Source of the DNA: Parcubacteria group bacterium
GTDB lineage: Bacteria; Patescibacteriota; Minisyncoccia; SW-4-49-11
Length of the DNA stretch: 64,000 nt
Direction: 5' to 3'
NCBI GenBank assembly: GCA_943354045.1
Contig: CALRBF010000001.1
Coordinates: 343,598 to 407,597 of the forward strand
How positions within the stretch are numbered: the stretch's first letter is position 1; the number at the start of each line of letters is the position of its first letter. Of the stretch, positions 1,882 to 63,970 are shown piece after piece. Made by a program: the position numbers and the translations under genes. The notes below the pieces were generated by a model that saw only the letters and a list, made by a program, of their open reading frames with translations, did no database searches and was not told the origin of the DNA.

Positions 1882-3018
1882 TTATCTAGCTAAAGGATTC
1901 TTTGCTCCTCTTACTTCAAAGTGAAGATGACATCCTGTTGAGTTACCAGTTGTTCCCATAGCTCCAATATATTGACCTTTGTTTACAGAATTTCCAACTT
2001 GTAAATCTCTACTGCTAAGATGACCATAAAGAGTGATAACTCCATTGGGATGAGTTATTTTGATATAATTTCCATACCCACCATTCCATCCATTTTGAGA
2101 AGTAGTGACTACACCTTCAGCTGAAGCATAAATAGGTGTTCCACAAGAGTTACTAATATCCACACCATTATTAGAGTGAATTCTTCCATAATTGGTTCCT
2201 GTGGTGGGAAAAGCAAAATATCCATCATTACTAGAAAGACTAGCTGATTGTACATTGGTAGCGGGAGTTGTTTTTTTTGTAGCTACTTTTTTAGGTTGAA
2301 CTGGAGCTTCGGTTGGGAAAGGTTTTTCCTCATTAGGAATTACAGCATTAGGAATAATAATCGTATTCCCAAGAGCTAAATTATCTCCAATATTATTATA
2401 ATTTCTTATATTTTGCTCTGAAACACTATATTTTGAAGCTAAATCAGCTAAAGATTGTCCTTCTTTTAAAGTAACTTTAATACCATCTTCTGGAAGAATA
2501 TCTAAATTAGTATTAATATCAGGAGTTTTCTTTAAGTCTTTAATATCATTTGCAATAGCAACTGTTTCTGATGATATACCAAATTTTTGAGCAATACTAT
2601 CAATGGTATCACCTGGTTGCACAATATATTCTCGTGTTACAGGAGTAGCAGATTCTTTGGTATATCCTTCAGGTGCATTGAGGGCATTAATAATATTAGA
2701 GTTTACAACAGGAATATCAGGATTAGACTCTTCGTCACTAGGAAGTCCAAGTACTCCATTACCTTGAACTACTCCAACGGATCCAAGAGATGCATCAAGA
2801 GGTCCTCCTAAATTAGTATTAGAAAGAAGAGTTGACCCAAGAGGAAGTTTTCCTGCATAGGCTATATTACTGAATACGACTAATCCTACTACAAGAGTAA
2901 GAATAATCCAACTAATTCTATCTTGGCTATGCCTTGTGGCATTTTTTATGAATCGTGTCACCTGGTTTTTGGATAATTTAAAAACAGACGTACTAATAGG
3001 ATTCTTAACTAAATACAA
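1882..3018 (-). CDS. LysM-domain M23 family metallopeptidase
   Basis: LysM motifs (GDTIDSIAQKFGIS, GQSLADLASKYSV). The C-terminal M23 signature reads HxxxD ... GYGNYIKITH ... GCHLHFEV. An N-terminal TM anchor is present. Confidence 0.8.
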   Translation of the reverse strand: MYLVKNPISTSVFKLSKNQVTRFIKNATRHSQDRISWIILTLVVGLVVFSNIAYAGKLPLGSTLLSNTNLGGPLDASLGSVGVVQGNGVLGLPSDEESNPDIPVVNSNIINALNAPEGYTKESATPVTREYIVQPGDTIDSIAQKFGISSETVAIANDIKDLKKTPDINTNLDILPEDGIKVTLKEGQSLADLASKYSVSEQNIRNYNNIGDNLALGNTIIIPNAVIPNEEKPFPTEAPVQPKKVATKKTTPATNVQSASLSSNDGYFAFPTTGTNYGRIHSNNGVDISNSCGTPIYASAEGVVTTSQNGWNGGYGNYIKITHPNGVITLYGHLSSRDLQVGNSVNKGQYIGAMGTTGNSTGCHLHFEVRGAKNPLAR

Positions 3019-4777: not shown

Positions 4778-5968
4778 TTATTTTATTGCCTCTAGCCTAA
4801 AAATTTGGTCACTTTTATCAGTGGGATTACCTCTCCCATCTTTATTAGAAGTACTAAAATAAATATATCCATCAGGTGAGACGGCTATATCTCGGATTCT
4901 ACCTTCAGCTATATTTAATTTTTCATAAGACTTTACTTTTTGTCTAGACTCATCTAAATAAATTACAAATATACCCTCACCTCTAAGACCACCGAATAAA
5001 AAGGTATTTTTGAGACTTGGATATTTATCTTGGGTATAGAATACTCCAGAAGCTGGAGCTACAGCAGGGGTGAATACAAGAAGGGGATCAATAGCCTCAG
5101 GAGTAGAATCGGTATGAGAGACTTTAGGCCAACCATAATCTTTACCAGGGAGAATACGATTGAATTCATCTCCTCCAGCTGCTCCATCGAATAATGAAGG
5201 TCCATGCTCAGTAGAGAATAAAACTCCAGAAATTGGGTCAAAATCTATACCTTGCGGATTACGATGCCCATAAGAATAGACATAAGAATTGCTAAAAGGA
5301 TTATCCTCTGGAATACTCCCATCTTTATTCATCCTTAGAATTTTACCACCTAGTGAATTAAGATCTTGAGCAATTTCTTTTTTGGTAGCATCTCCGGTAG
5401 TTATATATAATTTTTGGTCTGGTCCGAATCTTAGTCTTGATCCCGCATGGAATTTGGCGGCTGGAATTTTGTCTAGGAGTATTTTAAACTCTTTAGCTTG
5501 ATTATTGACATCTGTTAGTCTTACTACTTTTACAAACATCTGATTATTCTCCTCATAGGCTAGAGAAGTGTAAATATAAGGTGAGTTGGGATAATCAGGA
5601 TCCAGTACCATACCCATCAAACCTTCTTCATTGGTCGAACTAATTTCAGAAAATTTATAAAAATTAGATTGAGGTTGAGAGTTTTTGTAATATAAAATCT
5701 CGCCCGATCTCTGAGCAATATACATACTATTCTCAGTCGGGAAAACAATACTCCAAGGCACATATAGATTAGAGGCTACCGCAATATATGTATAATCTAT
5801 ACTTTTAGAAATAGTATTACTATCAACTTCTAATTTAGCGCCAGTTTTAATTTGAGGAGATTGTAGAATAGCAGTATAATTAATCAAAAAAATTGCTAGA
5901 ATAATTATAATAATCCCCAAAACCGAGAAAATAATTAGCTTTTTAGATTTTATTTTGGATTTTAGCAT
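4778..5968 (-). CDS. PQQ-dependent soluble sugar dehydrogenase (YliI/SGDH family), membrane anchored
   Basis: Beta-propeller SGDH motifs (YSYGHRNPQG, GPSLFDGAAGGDEFN, GKDYGWP). N-terminal TM. Confidence 0.65.
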   Translation of the reverse strand: MLKSKIKSKKLIIFSVLGIIIIILAIFLINYTAILQSPQIKTGAKLEVDSNTISKSIDYTYIAVASNLYVPWSIVFPTENSMYIAQRSGEILYYKNSQPQSNFYKFSEISSTNEEGLMGMVLDPDYPNSPYIYTSLAYEENNQMFVKVVRLTDVNNQAKEFKILLDKIPAAKFHAGSRLRFGPDQKLYITTGDATKKEIAQDLNSLGGKILRMNKDGSIPEDNPFSNSYVYSYGHRNPQGIDFDPISGVLFSTEHGPSLFDGAAGGDEFNRILPGKDYGWPKVSHTDSTPEAIDPLLVFTPAVAPASGVFYTQDKYPSLKNTFLFGGLRGEGIFVIYLDESRQKVKSYEKLNIAEGRIRDIAVSPDGYIYFSTSNKDGRGNPTDKSDQIFRLEAIK

Positions 5969-7845: not shown

Positions 7846-7932
7846 AAAGTTTATAAGTTATTTTGCATAGTACAATCTTAGCACAAATCTAATTGAGGTC
7901 AAATATTAGGGGATTAAAAGAGTTTCTAGATT

Positions 7933-8080
7933 TGTCCTCCTCCGTCCACTCCCGTATAAATACGACAGTGACCACCTCCCCCGAGGGAGGACAGGGATTT
8001 TGTCACTGCCTACCGCAGGCAAGCCTCGCTGGCGAGGGTGGCCGCAGGGCGGGTGTGGACGGGCGACTGTAAGGCCGCCC
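7933..8080. repeat. GC-rich hairpin-dense intergenic island, member of a 3-copy family
   Basis: About 60% GC in a roughly 32% GC context. Multiple short inverted repeats. The motif CTCGCTGGCGAGGGTGGCCGCAGGGCGGGTGTGGAC recurs inverted at 63566-63605. GAGGGAGGACAGGGATTTTGTC resembles 48968-48992. Confidence 0.5.
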
Positions 8081-8090
8081 CTACTAAAAG

Positions 8091-9143
8091 CTAAGCCTCT
8101 AAAACAGTATAAACTAATTCCAAAGGATAATGTTTTTCTTGAATTTGGTTTATGACAGTTTGGATTTTTGACAAAAGAGAGCTATTCTCTTTTGGTATGG
8201 TGAACAAAAGTATAAATGGATTATCTTGATTGATATACTCGCAACTAAATCCTTCAGAGCTAGAGGCTATATCTATTGCTAATTCAATATTTTGCATAAT
8301 TTGGTTAGAAGTTTGTCCACCGGCATAAATATTAAACATTGGAACTTCTAAATTTTCTTCTAATTCAGCGCCATTGAGTAGGGGGTTGAAGTTTACAATT
8401 GCTCCAAAAGCATGATGTAGATTTTTGGAATGTAATTCTTGAAAATGAAAGTGATGTGTTCGGACAGAGACTGCAGAATTTTGCTCTTGTAGTCTAGTGG
8501 TCAGAATACTAGCAAAACCAGAAGCATATTGCTCACTGGCTGAATCTAGGACTTTATCTTGATTTTGGAATTTATCTAAAATTTTACTCAAAACTTGCTT
8601 AGAACTTTTGTTAGTTAGAGTGTGAGCTACGGCTCCACATTTTGAGTGAGATGAGACTACAATTTCCTCAATAGTTGGATTATCTTCACATACAGAGATT
8701 ATATTATCTACCATTTGTAATTTTTCCTCGGCTGACATTAGGCATTCACAACCAGGAATTCCAAGTGATAAAGCATGATGAGAAGCGGTTAAATATTGTA
8801 TTCTCTCATCAATACAAGGTAACCAAATCATTTTTGGCCTTTTTACTAGACTATCTTTGAGAATTTTGTCTAAATGTAATTTGTATGTATACTCTGACTT
8901 ATATTTTGTCCCATCAAGATGCAAAAACCCTTTTACCCCTAAAACTTCAGATACAGGGTTGCTATATAACAGATTATGATAAGTTTGAGCATATTTTGCC
9001 CACTCTACACTACGATAAGAATCACAAGAGTTATCAACAGAATTTGCTGACGATATAATTTGGGCTGGCAAACGAAGAAGTGTGCCAAGAGAAGATATTC
9101 TAGACATAAATAAAAACAAATAATAGGACAAAGCCCAATACAA
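8091..9143 (-). CDS. hypothetical protein with beta-carbonic-anhydrase-like zinc-site motifs
   Basis: CIDER (CxDxR) followed about 57 aa later by HSKCGAV (HxxC), the spacing seen in beta-CA. Long N- and C-terminal extensions. The true start may be an internal Met. Confidence 0.3.
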   Translation of the reverse strand: MYWALSYYLFLFMSRISSLGTLLRLPAQIISSANSVDNSCDSYRSVEWAKYAQTYHNLLYSNPVSEVLGVKGFLHLDGTKYKSEYTYKLHLDKILKDSLVKRPKMIWLPCIDERIQYLTASHHALSLGIPGCECLMSAEEKLQMVDNIISVCEDNPTIEEIVVSSHSKCGAVAHTLTNKSSKQVLSKILDKFQNQDKVLDSASEQYASGFASILTTRLQEQNSAVSVRTHHFHFQELHSKNLHHAFGAIVNFNPLLNGAELEENLEVPMFNIYAGGQTSNQIMQNIELAIDIASSSEGFSCEYINQDNPFILLFTIPKENSSLLSKIQTVINQIQEKHYPLELVYTVLEA

Positions 9144-48564: not shown

Positions 48565-48635
48565 ATAAGTAATATCAGTATAGACTTTTTACTCCTTATC
48601 TGCAAGCTTAAGCTATAATATATTGTCGTAATCTA

Positions 48636-48664
48636 TTGACAAAATAGGGTTTTTGTGGTATATA
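48636..48664 (+). promoter_or_regulatory. Consensus sigma70-type promoter (TTGACA - 17 nt - TATATA)
   Basis: TTGACA at 48636-48641, a 17-nt spacer, TATATA at 48659-48664. Drives the GC-rich non-coding region. Confidence 0.5.
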
Positions 48665-48671
48665 TAATAGT

Positions 48672-49066
48672 GTAAATTTGCTCTTTGCAAATGGCCGACA
48701 TCTCTTTCACAGCGTCCTCGGACTCGGAAAAGAGAGGGGAGAAAGTTCAACTCCCCCCCTTCCTCAAGGTGAATCGGGATCGGGTGAAGCTCGACCCTCC
48801 CCTTCCTCCTCGGAGGAAGGGGACGCTCTCATGGAGGGCTTTCATTGGGATCTCCGCTGCTTTGGCTGCAGGAGGTCTGATACTGGGGGATCGATGGGGG
48901 GCTCCAGTCCCCATTACCATCATCCCCCATCAGGGGAATGTCGGAGGGGTTTCAGCAACACCCTCAAGGGAGACAGGATTACCCCGTGTCTCACAACCCT
49001 CCCCCGAAGTCTACCAAGACTGAAGGAACTCTCATCTTAACTTAGCCCCCGCATTTGCTGGGGGCT
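48672..49066 (+). ncRNA. Candidate structured non-coding RNA (about 395 nt, unknown class)
   Basis: Consensus promoter upstream. An intrinsic terminator (GCCCCCGCA..TGCTGGGGGC plus T-tract at 49045-49075) downstream. About 58% GC. Many hairpins (CCTTCCTCCTCGGAGGAAGG, GAGACAGG..CCGTGTCTC). No plausible ORF; translations are low-complexity G/S/P-rich. Confidence 0.4.
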
Positions 49067-49075
49067 TTTTCTTTT

Positions 49076-51295: not shown

Positions 51296-52021
51296 ATGGA
51301 TAATGTGTATCAACCAATACATACTTTAAAATTAATCAGTGAAAATGTATGGATTGTAGATGGCCCTATAATACATTTTTATGGAATGCCGTTTACGACA
51401 CGTATGGTGGTGATAAGACTTGTCAATAATGATATTCTCATACACTCTCCAATTAATTTGACCAGTTCTCTCAAAAAAGAGTTAGATGAGTTAGGCAATG
51501 TCAAATATCTAATCTCACCGAATAAAATTCACTATTGGTATATACAGGATTTTCAAAAAGCTTATCCGGAAGCTATTACTTTTGCTAGTGATGGAGTGCA
51601 AAAGCGAAGTCAGCAAGCAGGGCAATCAATACGATGGGATAGGGAATTAAAAGATATAGATCGGGATTATTTCCCAGACTTAGAAATTCTGCCTATGTCT
51701 GGTAATAGATTTATGACTGAATATACTTTTTTTCATATCCCTAGTAAATCTTGGATTGTGACGGATATCATAGAAAACTTTGAGCCTAATAAAATCAATC
51801 CATTTTTTAGAATTTTAGCCTATTTAGGAGGGGCTTTGCACCCAAATGGCGGTACAACGAGAGACCAGAGAACATTATTCTGGGGTAATCATCAGCTATT
51901 AAATAAATCTATAGACAGAATTAAATCATTGAGTCCTGATAGAATTATAATGGCACATGGTAAAATATTAGATCAAGACATAGCCTCCGAGCTAAACAGA
52001 ATTTTTGCCTGGGTTGGGTGA
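51296..52021 (+). CDS. hypothetical protein (DUF4336-like, tentative)
   Basis: Size about 240 aa. Assignment from memory of the DUF4336 family; weak. Confidence 0.3.
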   Translation: MDNVYQPIHTLKLISENVWIVDGPIIHFYGMPFTTRMVVIRLVNNDILIHSPINLTSSLKKELDELGNVKYLISPNKIHYWYIQDFQKAYPEAITFASDGVQKRSQQAGQSIRWDRELKDIDRDYFPDLEILPMSGNRFMTEYTFFHIPSKSWIVTDIIENFEPNKINPFFRILAYLGGALHPNGGTTRDQRTLFWGNHQLLNKSIDRIKSLSPDRIIMAHGKILDQDIASELNRIFAWVG

Positions 52022-52130
52022 GATGGGGGAGGGCTTTGTCTCTTTGTTCAATATAGTTAGTTATAATATATTGACAAAATGGGAGAAATATGATATTGTC
52101 TTTAGGCAATTTCTCAGGTAAACCTGTACT

Positions 52131-52406
52131 ATGACAACACTAAACCCACAAGATTTAGTTGAGTTCAATATCAATGAAGATGCTTACGGTCAAATCACAG
52201 ACGAAGGATGGAAACATTTGGAGAATACTGTAGGTGAAGATTACATTAAAAATTGCATCAAGCCAAGAGCTGTAGAGATTAATGGCGAAGTGTGGTATGA
52301 ATTGCTACTATGGAATTGGTTTGCATTATTCCCAGTTAAAAATGGTGTAAGATTACTTTTTGGTACTCGTATTCTATTTAAGAAATCAGATTTCAATTCG
52401 CTTTGA
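52131..52406 (+). CDS. hypothetical protein
   Basis: ORF only. Confidence 0.25.
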   Translation: MTTLNPQDLVEFNINEDAYGQITDEGWKHLENTVGEDYIKNCIKPRAVEINGEVWYELLLWNWFALFPVKNGVRLLFGTRILFKKSDFNSL

Positions 52407-52596
52407 GTTGCCATTGCTAGTCCAATAATTAAGAAATCCCTCTATCTTCAAGGTGGAGGGATTTTTACTTGTCTACAATCCCAAAAACAGCTTGTTATAG
52501 GTGCTTTGTATCCAATACACATAAACTTAGTATGGATTTATGTTACATGATATAATAAAACTATATTTACAAACCCCAAATTAATAAAGAAGTAAG

Positions 52597-53240: not shown

Positions 53241-53325
53241 AGCTAAATATGAGGGGTTTCGAACCTTTGAGTGGGGGATATAGTGTTTCCCCCGTACCCC
53301 CCTCACTATAGTTTTGGAGGTTTGT
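53241..53325 (+). repeat. Copy of 'element E', a tRNA-3'-end-like repeat (GTTCGAACCTTTGAGTGGGGGATATAG...CTCACTATAGTTTTGGAG)
   Basis: Near-identical cores at 58409-58500 and 59133-59225. This copy lacks the CCGGAGCCA end. Confidence 0.7.
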
Positions 53326-53393: not shown

Positions 53394-54812
53394 CTAGTTC
53401 ATGGTACGAACTCTATTTCTTACTTCTGCAAAAGTGGTTTCTCGTAGGAGATTCCCATTCTCAAAAACAGGCTGTAATAGATTTGGGGTATTGAGCTTGA
53501 TAGCCTCTTCTTCTCTTACTGTGCGATAATGACCGTCAGTATGAATAAGTGCGAGGCGCCCAGGCTTAGACTTTTTCCCAGGATCAGTTACGGGATCTTT
53601 GAGAACATCGTGCCAGGTATTATCGCGAAGTATAGCCGAGGCTTTTATCGCAAACTTTTGTGTATCACGATTAACCTTTTGTAGTAATCCACCACCCGAT
53701 CCAAATGCCAAGTTGTCAGCGGACCAACCAGCTTGCTCTATTGAGAAAAGAATTTTTCTCAGCATTTGATAGTCAATACCATCTCCTTGAATGATACGTA
53801 CTTTGGGGTTTAATACCCAATAGCCTTTATCATTTTTACTCTTTCCAAAATACTGGGCGAGTAGTTCAAGAACTTTTAGTACAACTTCAACTGGTTCTCC
53901 ACTGTCCGGGCGAATTACGAGCACTCCATCTCTTGCAAGCACCTGATCACGGAGTTTTGTCCCCCATAATTCAGAGCAAGCATGATAAATGTCATAGCTG
54001 TCACTCACTACGGCAACGAGGCCTTCTGGGAATTGATTGAGCATATTTCGATAGGAATCTATCTCATGCTCTTTACCCCAGCTTGTTACGGTGCTGTGCT
54101 CTGCTGCAGGTATGGAAAATCCCGCCATAGGCTCTTGATAGTAACGGCGAGCATAAATGATGCCCGCATAGGTGTCACTGCCAGAGAAAGCTGTTAAGTG
54201 GGCCATACCACCAATGCCTGCCGATTCAACCGAGGTTGAACCACGAAAGCCAAAATCATGTACTTTGAAATCAATGCCTGCAGGGTCACCCGTCTCTAGG
54301 AGAGACTGATAAACTGCATTACGCATTTGCCGGCTTTGAGTGGCAATGGTTGTTGGATACCATACTAGGGAGAGAATAGTCTCGAGGTAATTAGTAATCC
54401 ATGGTAACTCCGGGTCAGTATTCTCAATGGTCATGAGTACATTTCCTGTGGGGACGGTTAATCCCTCAGGAACTGCAGAAATGCGTACAGGTAATTTCCC
54501 ATTATGCACTTCTACGATTCTCTTCCAGCCATTTTCATTGAATAGCTTATCATTACCGAAATGGAGAGCATAATCATTTTTTGCTTCAGCTATATCTTCC
54601 AGAGCAACTCGTTTTCCAACAAGATATTCCATGAGATAGTATTGAAGGCCAAAAAATGTAACTTCTGGGAAAACTCCACCACGACTCTCAAAAAAGGAAT
54701 ACACCTTTTGAGTATTGGGTGGATATTGTTTCCAATGAGTAAATTTGTAGCTATCGGAAAGAAGAATGGTGTTCATGATGCCGCGCAGATTGAGGGTGTT
54801 TTGTTGAAGCAT
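53394..54812 (-). CDS. nadV: Nicotinamide phosphoribosyltransferase
   Basis: N-terminus NTILLSDSYKFTHWKQYPPNTQKVYSFFESR matches the NAMPT family; about 470 aa. Confidence 0.85.
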   Translation of the reverse strand: MLQQNTLNLRGIMNTILLSDSYKFTHWKQYPPNTQKVYSFFESRGGVFPEVTFFGLQYYLMEYLVGKRVALEDIAEAKNDYALHFGNDKLFNENGWKRIVEVHNGKLPVRISAVPEGLTVPTGNVLMTIENTDPELPWITNYLETILSLVWYPTTIATQSRQMRNAVYQSLLETGDPAGIDFKVHDFGFRGSTSVESAGIGGMAHLTAFSGSDTYAGIIYARRYYQEPMAGFSIPAAEHSTVTSWGKEHEIDSYRNMLNQFPEGLVAVVSDSYDIYHACSELWGTKLRDQVLARDGVLVIRPDSGEPVEVVLKVLELLAQYFGKSKNDKGYWVLNPKVRIIQGDGIDYQMLRKILFSIEQAGWSADNLAFGSGGGLLQKVNRDTQKFAIKASAILRDNTWHDVLKDPVTDPGKKSKPGRLALIHTDGHYRTVREEEAIKLNTPNLLQPVFENGNLLRETTFAEVRNRVRTMN

Positions 54813-54822
54813 GATAATCTCC

Positions 54823-55734
54823 TTAGAAACAGTGTTTGGGGTTGTTCTGAATAAATTGCAGGAGCATTTCTCCTAGGGGGATATGGCTTGGGATAAGATT
54901 CTCCTTAAAGGTATCAAGAGATATCCAATGAAGTTTATCGATATCATCGCCAGGTTCAGGTCGCCCAAAAATGTAGCGAGCTACAAAAAAACGAGTCATA
55001 ATACCGTCTCGCGTTTTTTTATAACGCCAGTCAGTAATACGGGTAGATCCAAGATAATGCCAATCAGCAACCTCAAAACTACCAGCCTCTTCTCGTAATT
55101 CTCGCTTAGCCGCAGCTTCATCAGAGATGTCTGTGTTATCCACAAATCCTCCGAAAAATCGAAACTTACCTTCATCCTGATATTTTTCCGCAAGTAAAAC
55201 CTGACTAGGTCTTATAACTGCAATATCAACCGTGCTATAGGTTTGGGGTGGGCGATTTTGTACTGCATGAATAACTCCCTGTCTCCAGGCGGTGGATTTA
55301 CCAATACGGTCACGAGTTATGGTGCGATACTTTGTCCCATTATAATCCCTGTAATTAGGAATGGTGATTATTGGATAACAACCACTATAATAGGGGATAA
55401 ATGAATCTCGGCCACCATAAAGTGTTACTATCGAATTTCTTGCAATACCAGCTATAAGATGATCAAGTTGCCGAGACCAAATATAGTCACTTGGATGATC
55501 AAACTGCTCAAGAATAATCGCATTTGGATATTCTTGAGCAATCATCTGAGCCCTGGCTGCAAAAGAAAGGGGGTCTTTATCTGAGGCAAGTCCACGGCTA
55601 CTACCAAGAATAATAAGAAGTCTCTCATGCTCAGACATAGCTGCCTCAATAATTCGATGATGTCCTGGATGTAGTTTTGCCACTTGAAAGCGACCAACTA
55701 CCACTCCAAGAGATGAGGGGGGAAGAACTACCAT
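54823..55734 (-). CDS. nadM: Bifunctional NMN adenylyltransferase / ADP-ribose pyrophosphatase (Nudix)
   Basis: Nucleotidyltransferase motif VVVGRFQVAKLHPGHH (HxGH). C-terminal Nudix box GGFVDNTDISDEAAAKRELREEAG. Confidence 0.8.
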   Translation of the reverse strand: MVVLPPSSLGVVVGRFQVAKLHPGHHRIIEAAMSEHERLLIILGSSRGLASDKDPLSFAARAQMIAQEYPNAIILEQFDHPSDYIWSRQLDHLIAGIARNSIVTLYGGRDSFIPYYSGCYPIITIPNYRDYNGTKYRTITRDRIGKSTAWRQGVIHAVQNRPPQTYSTVDIAVIRPSQVLLAEKYQDEGKFRFFGGFVDNTDISDEAAAKRELREEAGSFEVADWHYLGSTRITDWRYKKTRDGIMTRFFVARYIFGRPEPGDDIDKLHWISLDTFKENLIPSHIPLGEMLLQFIQNNPKHCF

Positions 55735-55762
55735 AGGATTACCATTTGTGAAAGAACATTAA

Positions 55763-55849
55763 CACTACTTAGTGTAACTAATACATTTAGTAAAGTTAAA
55801 AAAAGAAGTGTTAATTTAGATAGTGTATCAAATACAATAAGTATTGTCA
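55763..55849. promoter_or_regulatory. Candidate NrtR operator(s) upstream of nadM-nadV
   Basis: Perfect palindrome ACACTA-CT-TAGTGT (55763-55776). The 19-mer ATACAATAAGTATTGTCAA (55831-55849) recurs inverted at 56635-56653 in the nrtR/pnuC divergent region. Confidence 0.4.
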
Positions 55850-55880
55850 AATATATAAAAGGATTATGGATATAATCCTT

Positions 55881-56585
55881 TTATAGGACTTCTATTTCTT
55901 CAACTTTTTTTGAAGTCATACGATATAATTCTGCTGGTCGAAAGGCTCCATTTGCTCTTTTTTTACCAGTAGATTTTACAATATCAAGCTTGAGTATTTT
56001 TTTACGAAAATTACGTCTATCGAGATCATTTCCCAATATACTTTCAAAAGCTCTCTCTAATTCAGTAAGCGTAAATTCACGAGGAAGTAGTTGTCCTATT
56101 AGGGTAGTATAATGGACGCGAGAAGCCAATCTCTTTAATGCTGTTGCGAGAATTTCATCATGATCATATGCCAAATGTTTAGCAGTATGTACCGGTGACC
56201 AATAAATTGATCCTTTACTATCCTTTTCTTTAGTAGTTAATTTATCTTCTGAAATTAATCCAATATATCCAACAGCCACAACTCGTCCACGTGGATCACG
56301 ACTAATATTACTAAATGTAAATAGTTGCTCTAAATATACTTTTTTTGAATTAATATATCCTTTTTCATCAATAATACGGCGAGCTGCTTCTTCTGCAATT
56401 TCATCAGGACGAATAAGTCCACCAGGTAATCCAGGCTGATGTACAAAGTGTGGGGGACGATTGACTGTCATAAGTCTGACATATAAAGCCCCATCAAATA
56501 TAGTAAAAAGGACAATATCAGTAGCAAGTATTGCAAAGCGTAATGGGGTAGGGTTTTCTGGAGAATTAATAGGAGATTTTTTCAT
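55881..56585 (-). CDS. nrtR: NrtR-like Nudix-related transcriptional regulator of NAD metabolism
   Basis: N-terminal Nudix-like domain (GLPGGLIRPDEIAEEAARR, degenerate Nudix box). C-terminal winged-helix domain. Located between nadM/nadV and pnuC/nadR. Confidence 0.65.
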   Translation of the reverse strand: MKKSPINSPENPTPLRFAILATDIVLFTIFDGALYVRLMTVNRPPHFVHQPGLPGGLIRPDEIAEEAARRIIDEKGYINSKKVYLEQLFTFSNISRDPRGRVVAVGYIGLISEDKLTTKEKDSKGSIYWSPVHTAKHLAYDHDEILATALKRLASRVHYTTLIGQLLPREFTLTELERAFESILGNDLDRRNFRKKILKLDIVKSTGKKRANGAFRPAELYRMTSKKVEEIEVL

Positions 56586-56634
56586 ATAAACTCACTTTAT
56601 CATGCGATATTCTAGATGTCAATAATACAATAAC

Positions 56635-56668
56635 TTGACAATACTTATTGTATATAGTACACTAAGTA
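56635..56668. promoter_or_regulatory. Candidate NrtR operator in the nrtR / pnuC-nadR divergent intergenic region
   Basis: TTGACAATACTTATTGTAT (56635-56653) is the exact reverse complement of 55831-55849. TACACTAAGTA (56658-56668) matches the half-site at 55766-55776. Confidence 0.4.
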
Positions 56669-56692
56669 TATTATTAATTTAATTGTATCATT

Positions 56693-57397
56693 ATGACTAC
56701 TGATATTCGTCCTATAAAAGCTCTTATTGGAACTAGATATGAACATATTGAATCTGTGAAGGTAGCCGTGGCTATGGCTATAGTTGTATTCATATATGAA
56801 GCTATTTCATCATTTATTATACCAGATTTCCAACTAAATTGGTTTGAAATTATTGGTACTTGGACTGGACTTATATGTGTTTGGTTAGCAAGAACTCAAA
56901 ATATCCTTACATGGCTGTGGGGAATTATAAGTGTTGGGCTCCTTGGGTATTTCTTTGCCACAATAGGCCTTCCAGGACAACAATGGCTAAATTGGGGATA
57001 TTTCCTTATTATTCAGTTTTGGGCCTGGCCTCAATGGGCTTTTGGAGGTAAGCAAGCAACTGTACTACCTGTTACTCTTCTTACCAATAAAGCAAGATTA
57101 ATTCTTCTAGCAATAGCTTTACTAGCTACAGGTGTTATTTATTTTTTGATAGATATTATTGTCCCCGGATCAACTCTCCCATTATTGGATGCAACTGTTG
57201 TCGCAAGTAGTATAGTGGCTCAGTATTTACTTGGTCTCAAAAAAGTAGAAAGCTGGGTATTATGGCTAGGACCAGTTAATCTCCTCTCTATTATATTATT
57301 CTTTATAGCAGGGGCGTATACGGTAATGGCTCTCTATATTGCTTATTTCATCCATGCTATATGGGCCTTAAGAACTTGGTATCAAGAAGCGCGTTAA
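56693..57397 (+). CDS. pnuC: Nicotinamide riboside transporter PnuC
   Basis: 7-8 TM, W-rich motifs (WLNWGYF, QFWAWPQW) typical of PnuC. Confidence 0.8.
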   Translation: MTTDIRPIKALIGTRYEHIESVKVAVAMAIVVFIYEAISSFIIPDFQLNWFEIIGTWTGLICVWLARTQNILTWLWGIISVGLLGYFFATIGLPGQQWLNWGYFLIIQFWAWPQWAFGGKQATVLPVTLLTNKARLILLAIALLATGVIYFLIDIIVPGSTLPLLDATVVASSIVAQYLLGLKKVESWVLWLGPVNLLSIILFFIAGAYTVMALYIAYFIHAIWALRTWYQEAR

Positions 57398-57407
57398 TTA
57401 TACGAAT

Positions 57408-58373
57408 ATGTTTTACAATGGACTTGTAATTGGTAAATTTTACCCACCACATAAAGGACATAAATTCCTTATTGATACGGCGCAAAAAATGAGTGAAAAT
57501 CTAACCATTATTATTTGTGCTAAAGATAATGAAACTATTCCAGGAACTTTACGAGCGCAATGGCTATCACAAATACATCCTAAAGCTAAAATCATATTGA
57601 TCAATGATAATAAATTGGCTGATGATGATTCAGAAGGTTGGGCAAAATATACTGTAGATATACTAGGATTTGTACCAGATGCTGTTTTTACATCAGAAGA
57701 TTATGGAGATCCATATGCTCATTTTATGGGAAGTATACATGTACTTGTAGATAAAGAGCGTGCCACTATTCCGATATCAGGGACATTGGTGCGTAATAAC
57801 CCTACAAAATATATAAAATTTCTTGAACCAAATGTGAGAGCATATTTTACAAGAAGAATTGTAGTATTAGGGGCTGAATCAACGGGTACGACAACTTTAG
57901 CTAAAGCATTAGCACAGTATTATAATACGGTATGGGTGCCTGAATATGGACGATATTTTAGTGAAGGAAAACGTTTTGTAGGATATGGTGAAGGGGATTG
58001 GACTACTGCAGAATTTGTAGCTATTGCCAAAGCCCAAGCAAAATTTGAAGATTCTCTCGCTGAATCAAGTAAGGGGATAGTGATTTCTGATACTGATGCT
58101 TTTGCTACAGCTATTTGGCATGAAAGATATTTAGGTTTTCGTGCTCCAGAAGTAGAAGCAATCTCCGCTAATAGAAGAGTAGATCTCTATATAATAACAG
58201 GAGATGAAATTCCTTTTGAAGATGATGGACTTCGCGATGGGGAAAATATTCGACATGAATTGCACCAACTTTTTATTCAGCGTGTCATAGAAAGTAAAAA
58301 GCCATATATTATAGTACAAGGTAGTGTAGAAGAACGGCTACAAGTTGCGGTAGAGGCTATATATAAACTTTAG
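57408..58373 (+). CDS. nadR: NadR-type NMN adenylyltransferase / ribosylnicotinamide kinase (no HTH domain)
   Basis: HxGH motif GKFYPPHKGH; P-loop GAESTGTTTLAKALA of the RNK domain. Confidence 0.8.
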   Translation: MFYNGLVIGKFYPPHKGHKFLIDTAQKMSENLTIIICAKDNETIPGTLRAQWLSQIHPKAKIILINDNKLADDDSEGWAKYTVDILGFVPDAVFTSEDYGDPYAHFMGSIHVLVDKERATIPISGTLVRNNPTKYIKFLEPNVRAYFTRRIVVLGAESTGTTTLAKALAQYYNTVWVPEYGRYFSEGKRFVGYGEGDWTTAEFVAIAKAQAKFEDSLAESSKGIVISDTDAFATAIWHERYLGFRAPEVEAISANRRVDLYIITGDEIPFEDDGLRDGENIRHELHQLFIQRVIESKKPYIIVQGSVEERLQVAVEAIYKL

Positions 58374-58382
58374 GAAATATAA

Positions 58383-59106
58383 AAGAGGAGACAAAAACCT
58401 CCTCTTTTATATTTTGGCTCCGGAAGCTGGACGACGTTCGAACCTTTGAGTGGGGGATATAGGTACTTACCTCACCCCTTTCTCACTATAGTTTTGGAGA
58501 AATGAAAAAGCCCCCGCAGTGGCGGGGGTGTGTGCTGAGTAATTGCTACTCAGGGGGTTTTCAAAGTTTCCCCAAGTTTTTGGCCTACTTGATGTAATGC
58601 GACAGCTGGCCACAGTGCAGTTGTACCTAGACCTATCACTAGTTGGGATCTAGATAGCTCTCCTTTCGGGAATTCTGGGCCAAAGGCACCTATACCGACG
58701 GAAAAACCGACCCCCAGTAGTGAGTATGACACTGAGTATGACACCAATACGATCCATGGAAATAGATCGATGGACTTTGCTGGTGCTTCTGGAGCAGTGG
58801 GGGTTGGGCTCTCAGTAGTCATTGGGAATAACGAACATTAGCAAGAATAACATACCACATTTTCCCAATTTTGTCAATATCAAACAACATTATATTCTAA
58901 CTTATACTTTACTTATATATAAACCAAAAAACAGCTAAAATAAGCCGTTTAAAGGGAGCGGGCTCCGCGAGTAGGATTGCAAACCAGTCGTGAATGAGAT
59001 TCACTCCTTGGAACCACTCGGTTCCAATACCTCCACCACGGGAAACTCCCGTTTCCCGACCCCTTCCCCAGGTTCTCATCCTACTCTCTCAAAAGACAAG
59101 AAATAT
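58383..59106 (-). repeat. Tandem unit A (724 bp): terminator + tRNA-3'-end-like element E + small 2-TM ORF + promoter + pseudo-3'-exon fragment
   Basis: Near-identical in organisation and sequence to unit B (59107-59889). The terminator AAAGAGGAGACAAAAA(C/T)CTCC..TTTT is identical to the one following the real tRNA at 59890-59916. Confidence 0.75.
58550..58822 (-). CDS. small hypothetical 2-TM membrane protein (unit A)
   Basis: 90 aa. N-terminus MTTESPTPTAPEAPAKSIDLFPWIVL and C-terminus ALHQVGQKLGETLKTP are identical to the unit B paralog. Own terminator hairpins downstream. Confidence 0.4.
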   Translation of the reverse strand: MTTESPTPTAPEAPAKSIDLFPWIVLVSYSVSYSLLGVGFSVGIGAFGPEFPKGELSRSQLVIGLGTTALWPAVALHQVGQKLGETLKTP

Positions 59107-59889
59107 AAAAGAGGAGACAAAAATCTCCCCTTTTATATTTTGGCTCCGGAAGCTGGACGATGTTCGAACCTTTGAGTGGGGGGTATAAGTACCTACCTCA
59201 CCATCTCCTCACTATAGGTTGGGAGAAATAAAAAGCCCCCGCAGTGGCGGGGGTGTGTGCTGAGTAATTGCTGCTCAGGGGGTTTTCAAAGTTTCCCCAA
59301 GTTTTTGGCCTACTTGATGTAATGCAACAAATGGCCACGCAGCGGTGATACCTGTTATCACTACTGTCTGGGGCAGTGTGAGTAGTTCTTGCGGGTATCT
59401 TGAACCTAAGATACCCTTGGTAAAACCTATTCCCAGCATTGTGTATGATGCCAATACGATCCATGGAAATAGATCGATGGACTTTGCTGGTGCTTCTGGA
59501 GCAGTGGGGGTTGGGCTCTCAGTAGTCATTGGGAATAACGAACATTAGCAAGAATAACATACCACATTTTCCCAATTTTGTCAATACCAAACAACATTAT
59601 ATTCTAACTTATACTTTACTTATATATAAACCAAAAAACAGCTAAAATAAGCTGTTTAAAGGGAGTGGTCTCCGCGAGTAGGATTGCAAACCAGTCGTGA
59701 ATGGGATTTACTCCTTGGAACCACTCGGTTCCAATACCTCCACCACGGGAAACTACCATTCCCATCAATCCCCCCACACCCCGTCTCGGACACCTACGGT
59801 TTCCGACACTCGGAGTAAACTCCTCGCTGCCTTCCTGTCCAGGGGGACTGATACCCCTTCCCCAGGTTCTCATCCTATACTCTCTCAAA
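59107..59889 (-). repeat. Tandem unit B (783 bp), paralog of unit A
   Basis: See unit A. Confidence 0.75.
59275..59529 (-). CDS. small hypothetical 2-TM membrane protein (unit B)
   Basis: 84 aa, paralog of 58550-58822. Confidence 0.4.
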   Translation of the reverse strand: MTTESPTPTAPEAPAKSIDLFPWIVLASYTMLGIGFTKGILGSRYPQELLTLPQTVVITGITAAWPFVALHQVGQKLGETLKTP

Positions 59890-59974
59890 AGATAAGAAAT
59901 ATAAAAGAGGAGACAAAAATCTCCCCTTTTATATTTTGGCTCCGCGAGTAGGATTCGAACCTACGACCAATCGG

Positions 59975-60530
59975 TTACACCTTATCCAAGTATTTCTACA
60001 AGGCGTGGACTATATCATCATCCATCATAGTGATGGAGCGAGGCGCTTCCACTGTATTGCTACAATGTACTCCCTTGCGGGATAGTCTCTGAACCTTCCT
60101 GAGATTTCTCAGGCTTGGCTGCTGATTTCCATAATGTTTCCATCTTAGGGTTCCAGCAATTCACCTCGTGTTTCAACTTCTGTTACCAGAAGAAGCTGCA
60201 ACTAGACCCGCATGAATTTCTTTGTGGCAGTTAGAGCATACCAATACACATTTATCGAGTTCATCTTTCATTTTATCCCAAGATCTTGTAATTCCTTTAT
60301 AGGATATTCCAAAGTCTTTTTGATTGGGATCAGTGTGATGAAATTCTAATGCATCTGTACAGGTATTGTATCCACATAAGGAGCATTTATCTCCCAAGTA
60401 AGATACAGCTTTTTTCTTGAGAAGTTTTCTTCTCTGAGAAACTGCATTTTTAAGATATTCAGCACGATCAGAATATTTTCTTTTGCCAGGCATACTAATA
60501 TAATTAGGTGTACGATGACTCAAGAAGGTA
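59975..60530 (-). mobile_element. Group I intron (about 556 nt) carrying an HNH homing endonuclease ORF
   Basis: Conserved R element GGTTCAGAGACTA (60083-60095, minus) and S element GATATAGTCC (60007-60016, minus) form P7. A candidate IGS GCAGCC is complementary to the exon end GGCUGU with a U-G wobble. Confidence 0.7.
60173..60493 (-). CDS. HNH homing endonuclease (intron-encoded)
   Basis: CSLCGY..EFHHTDPN..CVLVCSNCHKEIH is an HNH/zinc-finger motif. The start is chosen at MPGKRK; the ORF-track start at 60535 is the tRNA anticodon GTG itself. Confidence 0.7.
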   Translation of the reverse strand: MPGKRKYSDRAEYLKNAVSQRRKLLKKKAVSYLGDKCSLCGYNTCTDALEFHHTDPNQKDFGISYKGITRSWDKMKDELDKCVLVCSNCHKEIHAGLVAASSGNRS

Positions 60531-60616
60531 TTCACAGCCGACTGCTCTACCGCTGAGCTATCGCGGAATTAGATTTGAAAGGTACTTGTATATTGTACCG
60601 AATAAGAGAGATATAG

Positions 60617-62205: not shown

Positions 62206-63498
62206 ATGCCAAAATTCCAATTACCATCTGGATTTATTGAATATACTCCTGAAGAGCAGGTGAAATTTAATTATATATTGGATACTATTCGAGAAGAATA
62301 TGAACATGCAGGATTCGCTCCTATAGAGACGGCTTCTATTGGATATTCGGAGGTAATTCTCGCTAAAGCTGGAGGAGAATTAGATAAAGAAATATATCGT
62401 TTTCAAAAAGGGGATAGAGATTTGAGTTTACGCTTTGATTTGACGGTGCCATTAGCTCGCTACATAGCTGAGCATAATCGTAATATGGTGTTACCTGCCA
62501 AAATATATCAAATTGGCAAATCCTGGCGAGCTGAAAAACCACAAAAGGGGAGATATAGAGAATTATATCAGGCTGATATCGATATTATTGGTAATAATAG
62601 TAGGCTAGCTGAGGCTGAGATGTTGTCTGTTATTCAGAATGTTTTTGCAATTTTAGAATTGCCAGCAATTACCTTTAGAGTTAGTAATCGTAAAATTCTT
62701 GCGGGGTTATTGGATTCATATGGTATTACCGATATAGCTTCAATTCTGAGAATTGTAGATAAAAAAGCTAAATTATCTGAGGCGGATTGGATACAAGCTC
62801 TCAGGGATATACAAACTCCAGATTTAGCAATAGATACATTATTAAGTTTATTTGAAAATGGGAAAAATAATCAAGAAATAGGTAAATTATTACAGCAACA
62901 GAATATCGATAATAATTTGTATCAAGAGGGAATACAAGAGCTTGAAGAATTTGTTAAATATTTAGAGTTATTTCACGTTAAAAGCTATGTTATAGATATC
63001 TCGATTGTAAGAGGGCAGGATTATTATACAGGAACAGTATTCGAGAGTTTTCTTGCAGGACTAGAGTCTTTTGGAAGTATTTGCTCTGGAGGTAGATATG
63101 ATAATTTGGTGGGACATTATATCGATACTCCTATTACGGGATTTGGAGCTTCTATTGGAGTAAGTCGTCTATTTGGAATTCTGCGAGAACAGGATTGGTT
63201 CCAAGAAATTCAATATGGAGATACTACTAAGATAGGCGTATTCCTATTAAATGAGGATACTGTGGAGGATGATATCAAGTCAATTATTGCACTCCGAGAT
63301 GAGCAAGGAATAGCTTTTGATTTATATCCAGAAATTACCAATTTCAAAAAAGCCTTACAATATGCTAATCGTAAAAATTATACGGAGGCTATATTCTTTG
63401 GAGCTGATGAAGCGAAAGCCGGAGAGGTACTTATTAAAAATATGGAATCAGGAGAGCAGGTAATTGTATTGGTTGGGGATTTGGGGGAGATTGAGTAA
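62206..63498 (+). CDS. hisS: Histidyl-tRNA synthetase
   Basis: Class II motifs: LRFDLTVPLARY (motif 2 region), GGRYDNL (motif 3), C-terminal anticodon-binding domain. Confidence 0.85.
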   Translation: MPKFQLPSGFIEYTPEEQVKFNYILDTIREEYEHAGFAPIETASIGYSEVILAKAGGELDKEIYRFQKGDRDLSLRFDLTVPLARYIAEHNRNMVLPAKIYQIGKSWRAEKPQKGRYRELYQADIDIIGNNSRLAEAEMLSVIQNVFAILELPAITFRVSNRKILAGLLDSYGITDIASILRIVDKKAKLSEADWIQALRDIQTPDLAIDTLLSLFENGKNNQEIGKLLQQQNIDNNLYQEGIQELEEFVKYLELFHVKSYVIDISIVRGQDYYTGTVFESFLAGLESFGSICSGGRYDNLVGHYIDTPITGFGASIGVSRLFGILREQDWFQEIQYGDTTKIGVFLLNEDTVEDDIKSIIALRDEQGIAFDLYPEITNFKKALQYANRKNYTEAIFFGADEAKAGEVLIKNMESGEQVIVLVGDLGEIE

Positions 63499-63502
63499 AA
63501 AT

Positions 63503-63920
63503 CACCTCCACCCCGTCAGGCAAGCCTGACACCCCTCAAGAGGGGGGTCTAAGCTCAGTCCACACCCGGCACTCCGTGCCACCCTCGCCGGCGAGGTACA
63601 GTATATCTTGTCCTCCCTTCTACCCACGGCAGATAAATGGGGGGGCGGACTTTAGGTCGGAGGTGGACAGTATTTTGTAGCGGAGTGGTTTAGTGTTATT
63701 TTGTCCCCCTTCGCCTGCCTGCGGTAGGCAGGGAGGGGGGAAGCCTGAAAGGCGGGGGGGGTGGATAGATCTTTAATTATTTAATATGTTAAAAACAAAT
63801 CCACCCTCCCCCTACGGGGACTCCCCCGCCTAAATAAATATAGGAGGGACGAAAGCCTCCAAAGGAGGATAAATATCAAAGGCGACTGAGAGGCTGCCCC
63901 TACGACTCCCCCTCCCATTC
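63503..63920. repeat. GC-rich hairpin-dense island, composite of family motifs
   Basis: 63566-63605 is the inverted copy of 7987-8021. TGCCTGCGGTAGGCA is the inverse of TGCCTACCGCAGGCA at 7975-7989. CGGGGGGGGTGGATAG resembles 27246-27262. The 3' part (63841-63920) belongs to the GGAGGGAC...GGCGACTGAGAGG...CCCTACGA short-repeat family. Confidence 0.5.
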
Positions 63921-63970
63921 TAAATATCATGTTTTTATGATATAATAGTACTAATAGGTCATAAAATTAT

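Follow-up and report, generated by a model that had tools for sequence, protein, structure and literature searches.

Genomic islands anchored on tRNA genes, with partial-tRNA remnants of serial integrations, have been described in several forms (e.g., the tycheposon islands of Prochlorococcus, bioRxiv 10.1101/2020.12.28.424599), as have integrase-less elements flanked by attachment (att) sites that occur in tandem accretion, the cis-mobilizable elements or CIMEs (PMC5704250). In Patescibacteria, group I introns have been reported at position 35/36 of tRNA-Asn, some of them with an HNH endonuclease (PMC13011429). Here we describe a locus in a 64,000-nt stretch of a Parcubacteria group bacterium genome (contig CALRBF010000001.1, positions 343,598 to 407,597; hereafter the window), in which two repeated blocks, each with a small membrane-protein gene, directly follow the 3' exon of an intron-containing tRNA-Asn(GUU) gene. 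How Patescibacteria, with their tiny genomes, exchange genes is poorly understood. Feature coordinates are window positions throughout, and the features of the array are read on the minus strand.

We think it probable that this array is part of a strain-variable island anchored on the tRNA-Asn 3' end, in which att-bounded cassettes without an integrase are shuffled at repeats consisting of a partial tRNA copy and a terminator. The anchor is the tRNA-Asn 3' exon (core O; 59937..59977, minus strand), which is 41 nt long, ends in ...CUCGCGGAGCCA and is complete; the array starts directly after it, and the tRNA gene is intact. Downstream of the tRNA were two blocks of 796 and 726 bp, which are also the start-to-start spacings, in nt, of a terminator termed T. 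Each block had the order T, a structured element X, a second terminator tX, a promoter, an open reading frame (ORF), a hairpin with an intrinsic terminator termed H (CCCCCGCCACTGCGGGGG plus a T-run in both units) and an element E, and a third T closed the array. All the parts listed in a preliminary description of this DNA (two units, terminators, E, hairpins, ORFs and tRNA-like fragments) were present where it had placed them on the minus strand. The E and X modules formed GC-rich spikes in a window of 34.9% GC.

In the tRNA-proximal block (unit 2), T, a palindrome of 40 nt and a bidirectional intrinsic terminator, comes straight after the CCA (copy 3, 59897..59936). It is followed by X2 (59655..59896), whose 3' arm is AATCCTACTCGCGGAGAC and which contains an 89-nt hairpin insert at 59764-59852, and by tX (59636..59657), which in relatives is the native terminator right after the tRNA. 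The promoter-like site of ORF2 (TTGACA-17-TATGTT, TG-extended) is at 59556..59584, ORF2 (84 aa, two hydrophobic helices) at 59275..59529, and H at 59229..59274, with its hairpin and terminator at 59236-59253. The unit ends with E2 (59141..59226), made up of a conserved arm (AACCTATAGTGAG...CCCCCCACTCAA) and a degenerate tRNA-Asn 3' end (AGGTTCGAAC...CCGGAGCCA). Unit 1 begins with T copy 2 (59101..59140), which is identical to copy 3 (40/40), and continues with X1 (58955..59100), a structured element of ~135 nt with a closing stem around three hairpins, one of which has a GNRA loop. It then has tX (58929..58950), a promoter-like site for ORF1 (58849..58877, TTGACA-17-TATGTT), ORF1 itself (58550..58822, 90 aa, two hydrophobic helices), H (58503..58549, terminator at 58511-58528) and E1 (58415..58500). 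Both promoters had 10/12 matches and an upstream TG. The closing T (copy 1, 58375..58414) is a GAGGAGG variant that also terminates the convergent NadR-like gene. All of these features other than the T copies are on the minus strand.

Comparison of the two units showed very uneven identity: T was 100% identical, tX plus promoter 98.5%, H 98%, X 93% (excluding the 89-nt X2 insert), E 89% and the ORF 80%, with only ~46% nucleotide identity over the central ~100 nt of the ORF. Overall the units differed at ~13% of positions and encode different proteins. Their 70-nt difference in length was due mainly to the X2 insertion, and gene conversion is indicated by 300 nt over which they are 97% identical. 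The mosaic identity would be accounted for by homologous exchange and gene conversion between shared modules. Each unit was bracketed by identical 48-nt repeats of CGGAGCCA plus T, and recombination between these repeats can change unit copy number. The preliminary description had noted that the two small proteins share their termini and differ in the centre, and this was confirmed: residues 1-26 and the last ~17 were identical, the centre was diverged and the indels were in multiples of three. The ORF1/ORF2 family was rare, with only six clusters among 5.8 billion proteins. It had no Pfam match at the gathering score and no significant Pfam, PHROG or PADLOC hit, and the suggested toxin/immunity or holin role thus found no support. 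For the other cassette ORFs examined, Pfam likewise gave no match at the gathering score. In L015, L016 and L046, three of the related contigs described below, a homologue was the first gene after tRNA-Asn-tX (order tRNA-tX-promoter-ORF-H-E), in what looks like the ancestral arrangement.

The host is a patescibacterial population of the Parcubacteria/Paceibacteria type, and the related contigs in the genome collection (given L numbers here) were labelled as Candidatus Paceibacterota, Paceibacteria or Parcubacteria metagenome-assembled genomes. Contigs 97-99% identical to the window differed from it exactly in the array region. In L001 and L002 the intron-less tRNA was followed in turn by tX-103aa-E, tX-262aa-GrpB-E, T-X and T-NadR. 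In L006 the unit next to the tRNA contained ORF1 and then an E of the E2 type, and in L011 another terminator, T', replaced T after tRNA-Asn and the 89-nt insert was missing. Related species followed the same order of parts with different cargo. In L046 the tRNA was followed by tX-ORF78-E, T'-X, tX-ORF189-E and T-NadR; the island cargo of L012 comprised a 118-aa ORF, a lectin, a NUDIX protein and a peptidase M16, and that of L031 and L037 a 4.4-kb glycosyltransferase/kinase set. Contigs from many samples broke inside the array, as expected of a repeated, heterogeneous locus.

The variation was not confined to the two units. The next island segment, between E1-T and a truncated copy of E (53258..53318, minus strand), holds a set of NAD-salvage genes (NadR-like, PnuC, NrtR, NUDIX and NAMPT; 53394..58373), which was missing from the corresponding L012 island and partly missing in L018. 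The two-unit view of the preliminary description was therefore incomplete, as the island reaches at least 53.26 kb. In addition, the ORF1 module (promoter, ORF and H; 97.6% identical) was found 6 kb away from the array position in L001-L004, between NAD_binding_10 and DUF4336 genes. In the window this second variable cassette slot (52059..52508, plus strand) contains an unrelated 91-aa ORF with a related promoter (TTGACAAAATGGGAGAAATATGATAT), in the opposite orientation to the ORF1 module of L001-L004, and in the more distant relatives L012 and L020 the slot was empty. Another stretch similar to this cassette promoter was seen at 48609-48661.

The preliminary description had read the array as the scar of serial integration at a tRNA attachment site, or of amplification. 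The first of these was supported in part, in that the repeated tRNA 3' ends behave like attachment-type repeats: the number and content of blocks varied among 97-99% identical strains, with every new junction at ...CGGAGCC(A). Amplification alone was not, as the units are mosaic (flanks 98-100%, ORF centre ~46%) and not recent copies of one another.

We compiled every ...[CG]GGAGCC-type site with a tRNA-, X- or E-like left flank (written below as left/right element) and obtained 55 distinct junctions, with tRNA, X or E on the left and T, T', tX, tX2 or a fifth terminator on the right, in nearly all combinations. With the tRNA on the left, tRNA/T, tRNA/T' and tRNA/tX were seen; the counts for the others were E/T 8, E/T' 6, E/tX 6, E/tX2 5, X/tX 8 and X/T 2. 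Close strains were identical up to the ...CGGAGCC(A) core from either side and then switched (e.g., E1/T-NadR in the window versus X/T-NadR in L001, and tRNA/T in the window versus tRNA/tX in L001). Almost every core was followed by an intrinsic-terminator hairpin, which is what an incoming element must supply to rebuild the 3' end of the tRNA gene. Empty sites (tRNA/tX) were present in L001, L012, L015, L046 and L047, versus tRNA/T-X in the window, L006, L031 and L038. Direct repeats with the tRNA 3' end were an 18-nt exact copy that ends X, an 8-12-nt core plus T-loop in E, and 58 nt including T in L001, giving X/tRNA repeats of 18-58 nt.

This pattern appears to be the product of attachment-type recombination at the tRNA 3' end, in which tRNA/tX would be attB, tRNA/T attL, E/tX or X/tX attR, and E/T an attP-like site. 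A cassette would start with an intrinsic terminator (T, T', tX or others) and end with a partial tRNA-Asn 3' copy. Element E would be the end of cargo cassettes, which carry a small membrane-protein gene with its own promoter here and unrelated genes in other strains and species, and X would be the second kind of cassette end. Recombination at the partial-tRNA/terminator junctions, acting as attachment-type repeats, would insert, delete, duplicate or swap whole cassettes, and the two 0.75-kb units would be diverged copies of a composite, T-X joined to tX-promoter-ORF-H-E. The recombinase would not be encoded locally; the chemistry may be that of a trans-acting site-specific enzyme or of host recombination on the 18-58-nt repeats.

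Analyses of the E copies indicated a conserved element of ~85 nt, consisting of an arm of ~45 nt (AAACTATAGTGAGAG...GGGGTAA...CCTATATCCCCCACTCAA) and, after it, AGGTTCGAAC...(C)TCGCGGAGCCA. The latter is the T-loop-to-CCA segment of tRNA-Asn, its T stem destroyed by an insertion of 5-6 nt; the tRNA-derived letters are AGGTTCGAA...CTCGCGGAGCCA. The truncated copy mentioned above has the arm and GGTTCGAA and lacks the CGGAGCCA end (E profile E-value 1e-15), and the profile found no copies in the 64-kb window beyond this one, E1 and E2. A fourth, degenerate copy at ~52010-52058, suggested by two 11-nt matches by eye, had a profile E-value above 10 and is not claimed. The preliminary description had proposed that E mimics a tRNA. 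The tRNA sequence is indeed copied, but ARAGORN called no tRNA in E, Rfam gave no tRNA hit at E<=10, and the fold was insignificant (single-sequence z = -0.9; consensus of 18 copies -2.8 kcal/mol). Together with the disrupted 3' strand of the T stem, these results ruled out E as a tRNA mimic or a structured RNA. Two other candidates, a derivation of E from the intron 3' end plus exon and a phage-type promoter at 'CTATAGTGAG', were rejected because the resemblance was too short, as judged from the sequence only. Elements of this family flanked unrelated cargo in both gene orientations, including NAD salvage, GrpB with a nucleotidyltransferase-like protein, peptidase M16/NUDIX, a ricin-type lectin and glycosyltransferases. 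E behaves as a cassette-end or attachment-arm sequence.

Element X is of a different kind. The 'tRNA 3' exon copy' of the preliminary description is present as sequence, but it is the 3' arm of this larger element, which had been missed as a unit. X is ~135 nt long and ORF-less, with a 5' arm, three internal hairpins and a 3' arm, the two arms pairing to form a closing stem. The 5' arm, GAGAGAGTAGGAT(T/G)(C/A)GAACC, is an inverted copy of the tRNA-Asn T-arm/acceptor (a 19-nt match in L033 and L037), and the 3' arm, CTGGTTTGCAATCCTACTCGCGGAGCC, is a direct copy of the same region. The terminal partial tRNA copy, AATCCTACTCGCGGAGCC, matched the tRNA at 18/18 positions in X1 and 17/18 in X2 (GGAGAC), and its T-loop is changed from GGTTCGAATCC to GGTTTGCAATCC.

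The structure of X is conserved. Across 14 distinct copies, 96% of cells were paired versus 30-49% in slid controls, and one-sided changes, with few exceptions, led to G-U on the tRNA-sense strand. In 16 core sequences, four pairs of hairpin B had compensatory changes with up to three pair types, and hairpin A had a coordinated A/T insertion and a loop that varied within GNRA (GGGA, GGAA, GAGA). The fold z was -3.3 in the sense and -5.9 in the antisense orientation, and thermodynamics was therefore no guide to the strand. No promoter-like site was found between T and X; the strong terminator T lies directly upstream of X and the intrinsic terminator tX directly downstream. The 89-nt insert of X2 is a GC-rich hairpin with a 13-bp terminal stem that folds at -39.9 kcal/mol. 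It was missing from X2 of the 99%-identical L005 and L011, and copies of the module were found in L026, L031, L037 and, placed differently relative to hairpin A, in an X-type element beside tRNA-Ala in L011 (1322-1418).

This tRNA-Ala(GGC) element of L011, a contig of the same species, is at 1250-1558 on the minus strand, ~4.4 kb past the window end. It has the X core (GGGAAAGGGG, hairpin A and hairpin B), and its arms match tRNA-Ala, the 5' arm being ATCGAACCAG (inverted T-arm) and the 3' arm CCGGTTTGTATCCCAGTACGGTCCA. It was flanked by a 40-nt direct repeat comprising the tRNA 3' end from the T-loop and 24 nt of downstream flank. Three further species had an X at tRNA-Ala without the 89-nt domain (L046; L047, 9756-9985; and L049, 9786-9990), and the direct repeats of the tRNA-Ala 3' end around the four elements were 17-40 nt. 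L015 (1915-2040) had a clean empty site at tRNA-Ala. The Asn and Ala elements have a T-loop change in common, GGTTCGA to GGTTTGY. The X core was also found without tRNA-like arms, inside GC-rich composite hairpins of other intergenic regions (L046, 10814-10884; L049, 18317-18360). X, E and these composite hairpins matched no Rfam family at gathering or E<=10 thresholds. This 35% GC genome also has intergenic stretches of 200-400 nt whose GC content is 54-57% (window 48678-49071, 63456-63925 and 7916-8122; L046 10675-11050; L049 18290-18520); some are long composite hairpins with the X core, and none matched Rfam.

Several observations weigh against a cassette system of the kind proposed here. 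The Pfam scans and precomputed gene calls, which covered most window ORFs of at least 120 aa, revealed neither an integrase nor a transposase or any other recombinase, and the same was true of 20 ORFs adjoining E or X in other loci; several neighbour proteins are unannotated; the preliminary description had likewise seen no integrase. The core shared by E and the tRNA, at 8-12 nt, is too short for efficient homologous recombination, and some junctions could therefore stem from slippage or illegitimate recombination rather than from a dedicated enzyme. Some breakpoints were inside modules and not at the core (the hybrid T'-X of L011, and ORF1 with an E2-type E in L006), indicating that ordinary homologous exchange also contributes. 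Finally, the structural conservation of X exceeds what a passive attachment scar would need.

An integrase beside the array was not found in other strains, where the contigs with the upstream 174-aa gene all ended within the array, and no autonomous relative sharing the att specificity was seen in ~400 kb of related loci. The only recurrent protein family near E or X was a 244-aa family with three copies and no annotation. An origin of E and X in a phage or plasmid was considered and dropped, as neither the X core nor the 3' 18-mer of E occurred in viral contigs; the matches of the tRNA-Asn 3' 22-mer were confined to tRNA genes on unrelated, high-GC or jumbo-phage contigs.

Four other explanations were weighed. 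That the array is an assembly artefact, an expanded or chimeric repeat, has next to no probability: contigs often break in this region, but the units are ~13% different, and the array was reproduced by independent contigs of other samples (L005, 99.4% over 1416 nt, L007, L008 and L011), which contain both units or the inter-unit junction, several of them spanning both units and the junction at 99-100% identity. A plain local tandem duplication of one block (tRNA 3' part-T-X-tX-ORF-H) by unequal crossing-over or slippage, with the tRNA pieces as passive joints of the duplication and no mobile cassettes, is in our view unlikely. The identical 48-nt bracketing repeats would support unequal crossing-over, the ancestral order is present in L015, L016 and L046, and deletions between short direct repeats can yield several of the observed junctions. 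However, such a duplication does not fit the recurrence of E and T-X around unrelated cargo at many loci and in many species, the presence of the ORF1 module at two different sites among strains, the match of the tRNA-Ala X arms to their own tRNA, or the mosaic rather than uniform divergence of the units.

It is also unlikely, to about the same degree, that X, and perhaps E, are functional non-coding RNAs beside tRNA genes (e.g., a processed 3' trailer mimicking or pairing with the T-arm and acceptor strand), with the repetition arising from gene duplication. The extensive pairing of X, the compensatory pairs of hairpin B, the GNRA loop kept in hairpin A, the bias of one-sided changes to G-U on the tRNA-sense strand, the tX terminator after X and the occurrence of the core away from tRNAs all favor an RNA. 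Against it, X has the strong terminator directly upstream and no promoter-like site in between, the thermodynamics is strand-neutral, its presence/absence polymorphism with direct repeats is insertion-like, X has no Rfam match and E has no fold. An integron-like or guide-directed system, in which X folds as single-stranded DNA or RNA into a mimic of the T-arm core site and an unlinked host recombinase inserts cassettes at tRNA 3' ends, we regard as quite improbable. The folded stem of X does reproduce both strands of the tRNA T-arm/acceptor, with an imperfect centre and a variable distal structure, its arms co-vary with the adjacent tRNA (Asn vs. Ala), and small integrase-less cassettes are arrayed from a fixed anchor. 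Yet no recombinase candidate was found, the commoner cassette end, E, is unstructured, promoters are carried on the cassettes themselves and both orientations occur, a departure from classical integron cassettes, and the X core also occurs without tRNA-like arms. We also speculate, with little confidence, that X may be a family of ORF-less structured elements homing to various tRNA 3' ends, whose own closing stem, carrying both strands of the target T-arm/acceptor, would be a folded-DNA (attC- or CTX-phage-like) or RNA-guided substrate of an unlinked host enzyme. The shuffling of integrase-less, att-bounded cassettes at partial-tRNA/terminator repeats is thus the explanation that we prefer.

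The rest of the tRNA-Asn(GUU) gene was resolved by comparison with its intron-less allele, which set both the intron boundaries and the tRNA identity. The 5' exon (60534..60567, minus strand) is 34 nt long, ends in ...GGCUGU and matched the intron-less tRNA-Asn of L001 (1634-1708), L006 and L038, which ARAGORN typed as Asn (gtt). A promoter-like site (TTGACT-17-TACAAT; 60620-60592, minus strand) is located upstream. The group I intron (59978..60533, minus strand; 556 nt) is inserted at anticodon-loop position 35/36, had an Rfam RF00028 match of 73.3 bits at 59986-60224, and contains an HNH endonuclease ORF (60173-60493, minus strand; HNH Pfam E-value 4e-4). ARAGORN called no tRNA gene across the 64-kb window, despite the presence of this one, which it missed because of the 556-nt intron; standard annotation would therefore overlook the island anchor. 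The intron belongs to the patescibacterial tRNA-Asn class of group I introns described earlier (PMC13011429): the tRNA-Asn(GUU), the insertion between 35 and 36, the HNH ORF and the failure of standard tRNA finders all agree, whereas the downstream array, E and X are absent from that paper. The intron and its HNH ORF were polymorphic within one population, some strains having both and others neither, a pattern suggestive of homing or loss still under way. The intron-less strains had an 87-aa GIY-YIG ORF with a ~90-nt structured leader directly upstream of tRNA-Asn (L001 1262-1633, the same in L002; L046 1963-2226), and beyond it, on the side away from the tRNA, a 15-nt duplicate of the tRNA-Asn 5' end (AATTCCGCGATAGCT). 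The tRNA-Asn gene is the target here of a second element of the endonuclease type.

Other differences and genes were observed in the surroundings. In the same-species contig L022, other sequence stood in place of the window genes for an M23/LysM peptidase and a glucose/sorbosone dehydrogenase (1882-3018 and 4778-5968), and these positions look like further variable spots. A heliorhodopsin gene lies just past the window end, a few kb from the array locus (L011 2091-2927), and an aldehyde-decarbonylase-family gene is in the window at ~50.5-51.2 kb.

These findings are of interest as the locus appears to capture coexisting strains of one population swapping 0.2-5 kb cassettes at a tRNA gene, with membrane proteins, NAD salvage, glycosyltransferases and peptidases as cargo. 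E, X and the CGGAGCCA core provide landmarks for finding such islands in other genomes; X is a conserved structured element that had gone unannotated, and the locus variants are a natural set for following island turnover. If X is a folded or guide-type recombination site, it would represent a new route of cassette capture, and if X elements form a homing family, genome-reduced Patescibacteria would have an integron-like cassette system on tRNA genes with no dedicated integrase nearby.

Among known systems, the locus resembles integrative elements generally in its insertion at a tRNA 3' end, its flanking tRNA repeats and its occupied and empty sites, and differs in that no integrase of its own was found among the ORFs examined. 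Like the tycheposon islands (bioRxiv 10.1101/2020.12.28.424599), it starts at a tRNA 3' end, has partial tRNA copies between segments, varies in content among close strains, and carries miscellaneous niche-gene cargo in a streamlined host genome with few other mobile elements. Unlike in those islands, neither a recombinase of the tyrosine or serine type nor a replication module was found among the window ORFs and E/X-adjacent ORFs examined, the cassettes are far smaller (0.19-5 kb), the host is patescibacterial, and the partial-tRNA copies are joined to an additional conserved arm in E and to a structured body in X. As in CIMEs (PMC5704250), att-flanked units stand in tandem at the 3' end of the target gene without integration and transfer genes, keep attL-/attR-type repeats, and show complex gain and loss in composite arrays; in contrast to CIMEs, no related integrase-bearing partner was seen, there is no link to conjugation, and the elements are one to two orders of magnitude smaller.

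The likeness to integron arrays and attC clusters lies in the small cassettes, some of them ORF-less, that line up from a single fixed anchor and all end in a conserved element of recombination type. X resembles attC in being an imperfect palindrome whose distal structure varies, and it folds (z = -3.3, 96% of cells paired), whereas E does not (z = -0.9, consensus -2.8 kcal/mol). The locus departs from integrons in that no IntI gene or attI is next to the array, the upstream genes being the 174-aa ORF, YgjP-like, AhpC and HisRS-like, and in that the anchor is a tRNA gene, E is unstructured, and the cassettes have their own promoters and terminators and occur in both orientations. The 89-nt insert and the X core, as nested GC-rich hairpins in a 35% GC genome with presence/absence polymorphism, recall miniature inverted-repeat transposable elements (MITEs) and the GC-rich palindromic clusters of AT-rich genomes. 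The insert has the terminal inverted repeats, several copies and polymorphism of a MITE, with no clear target-site duplication at its flanks and no cognate transposase found. Unlike MITEs, the elements have no known transposase and no evident target duplications, and X at tRNAs has long target-matched arms. What is new at this locus, relative to these systems, is that the host belongs to this phylum, that the cassettes are miniature, that no recombinase is visible and that there is a structured element, X, with tRNA-specific arms.

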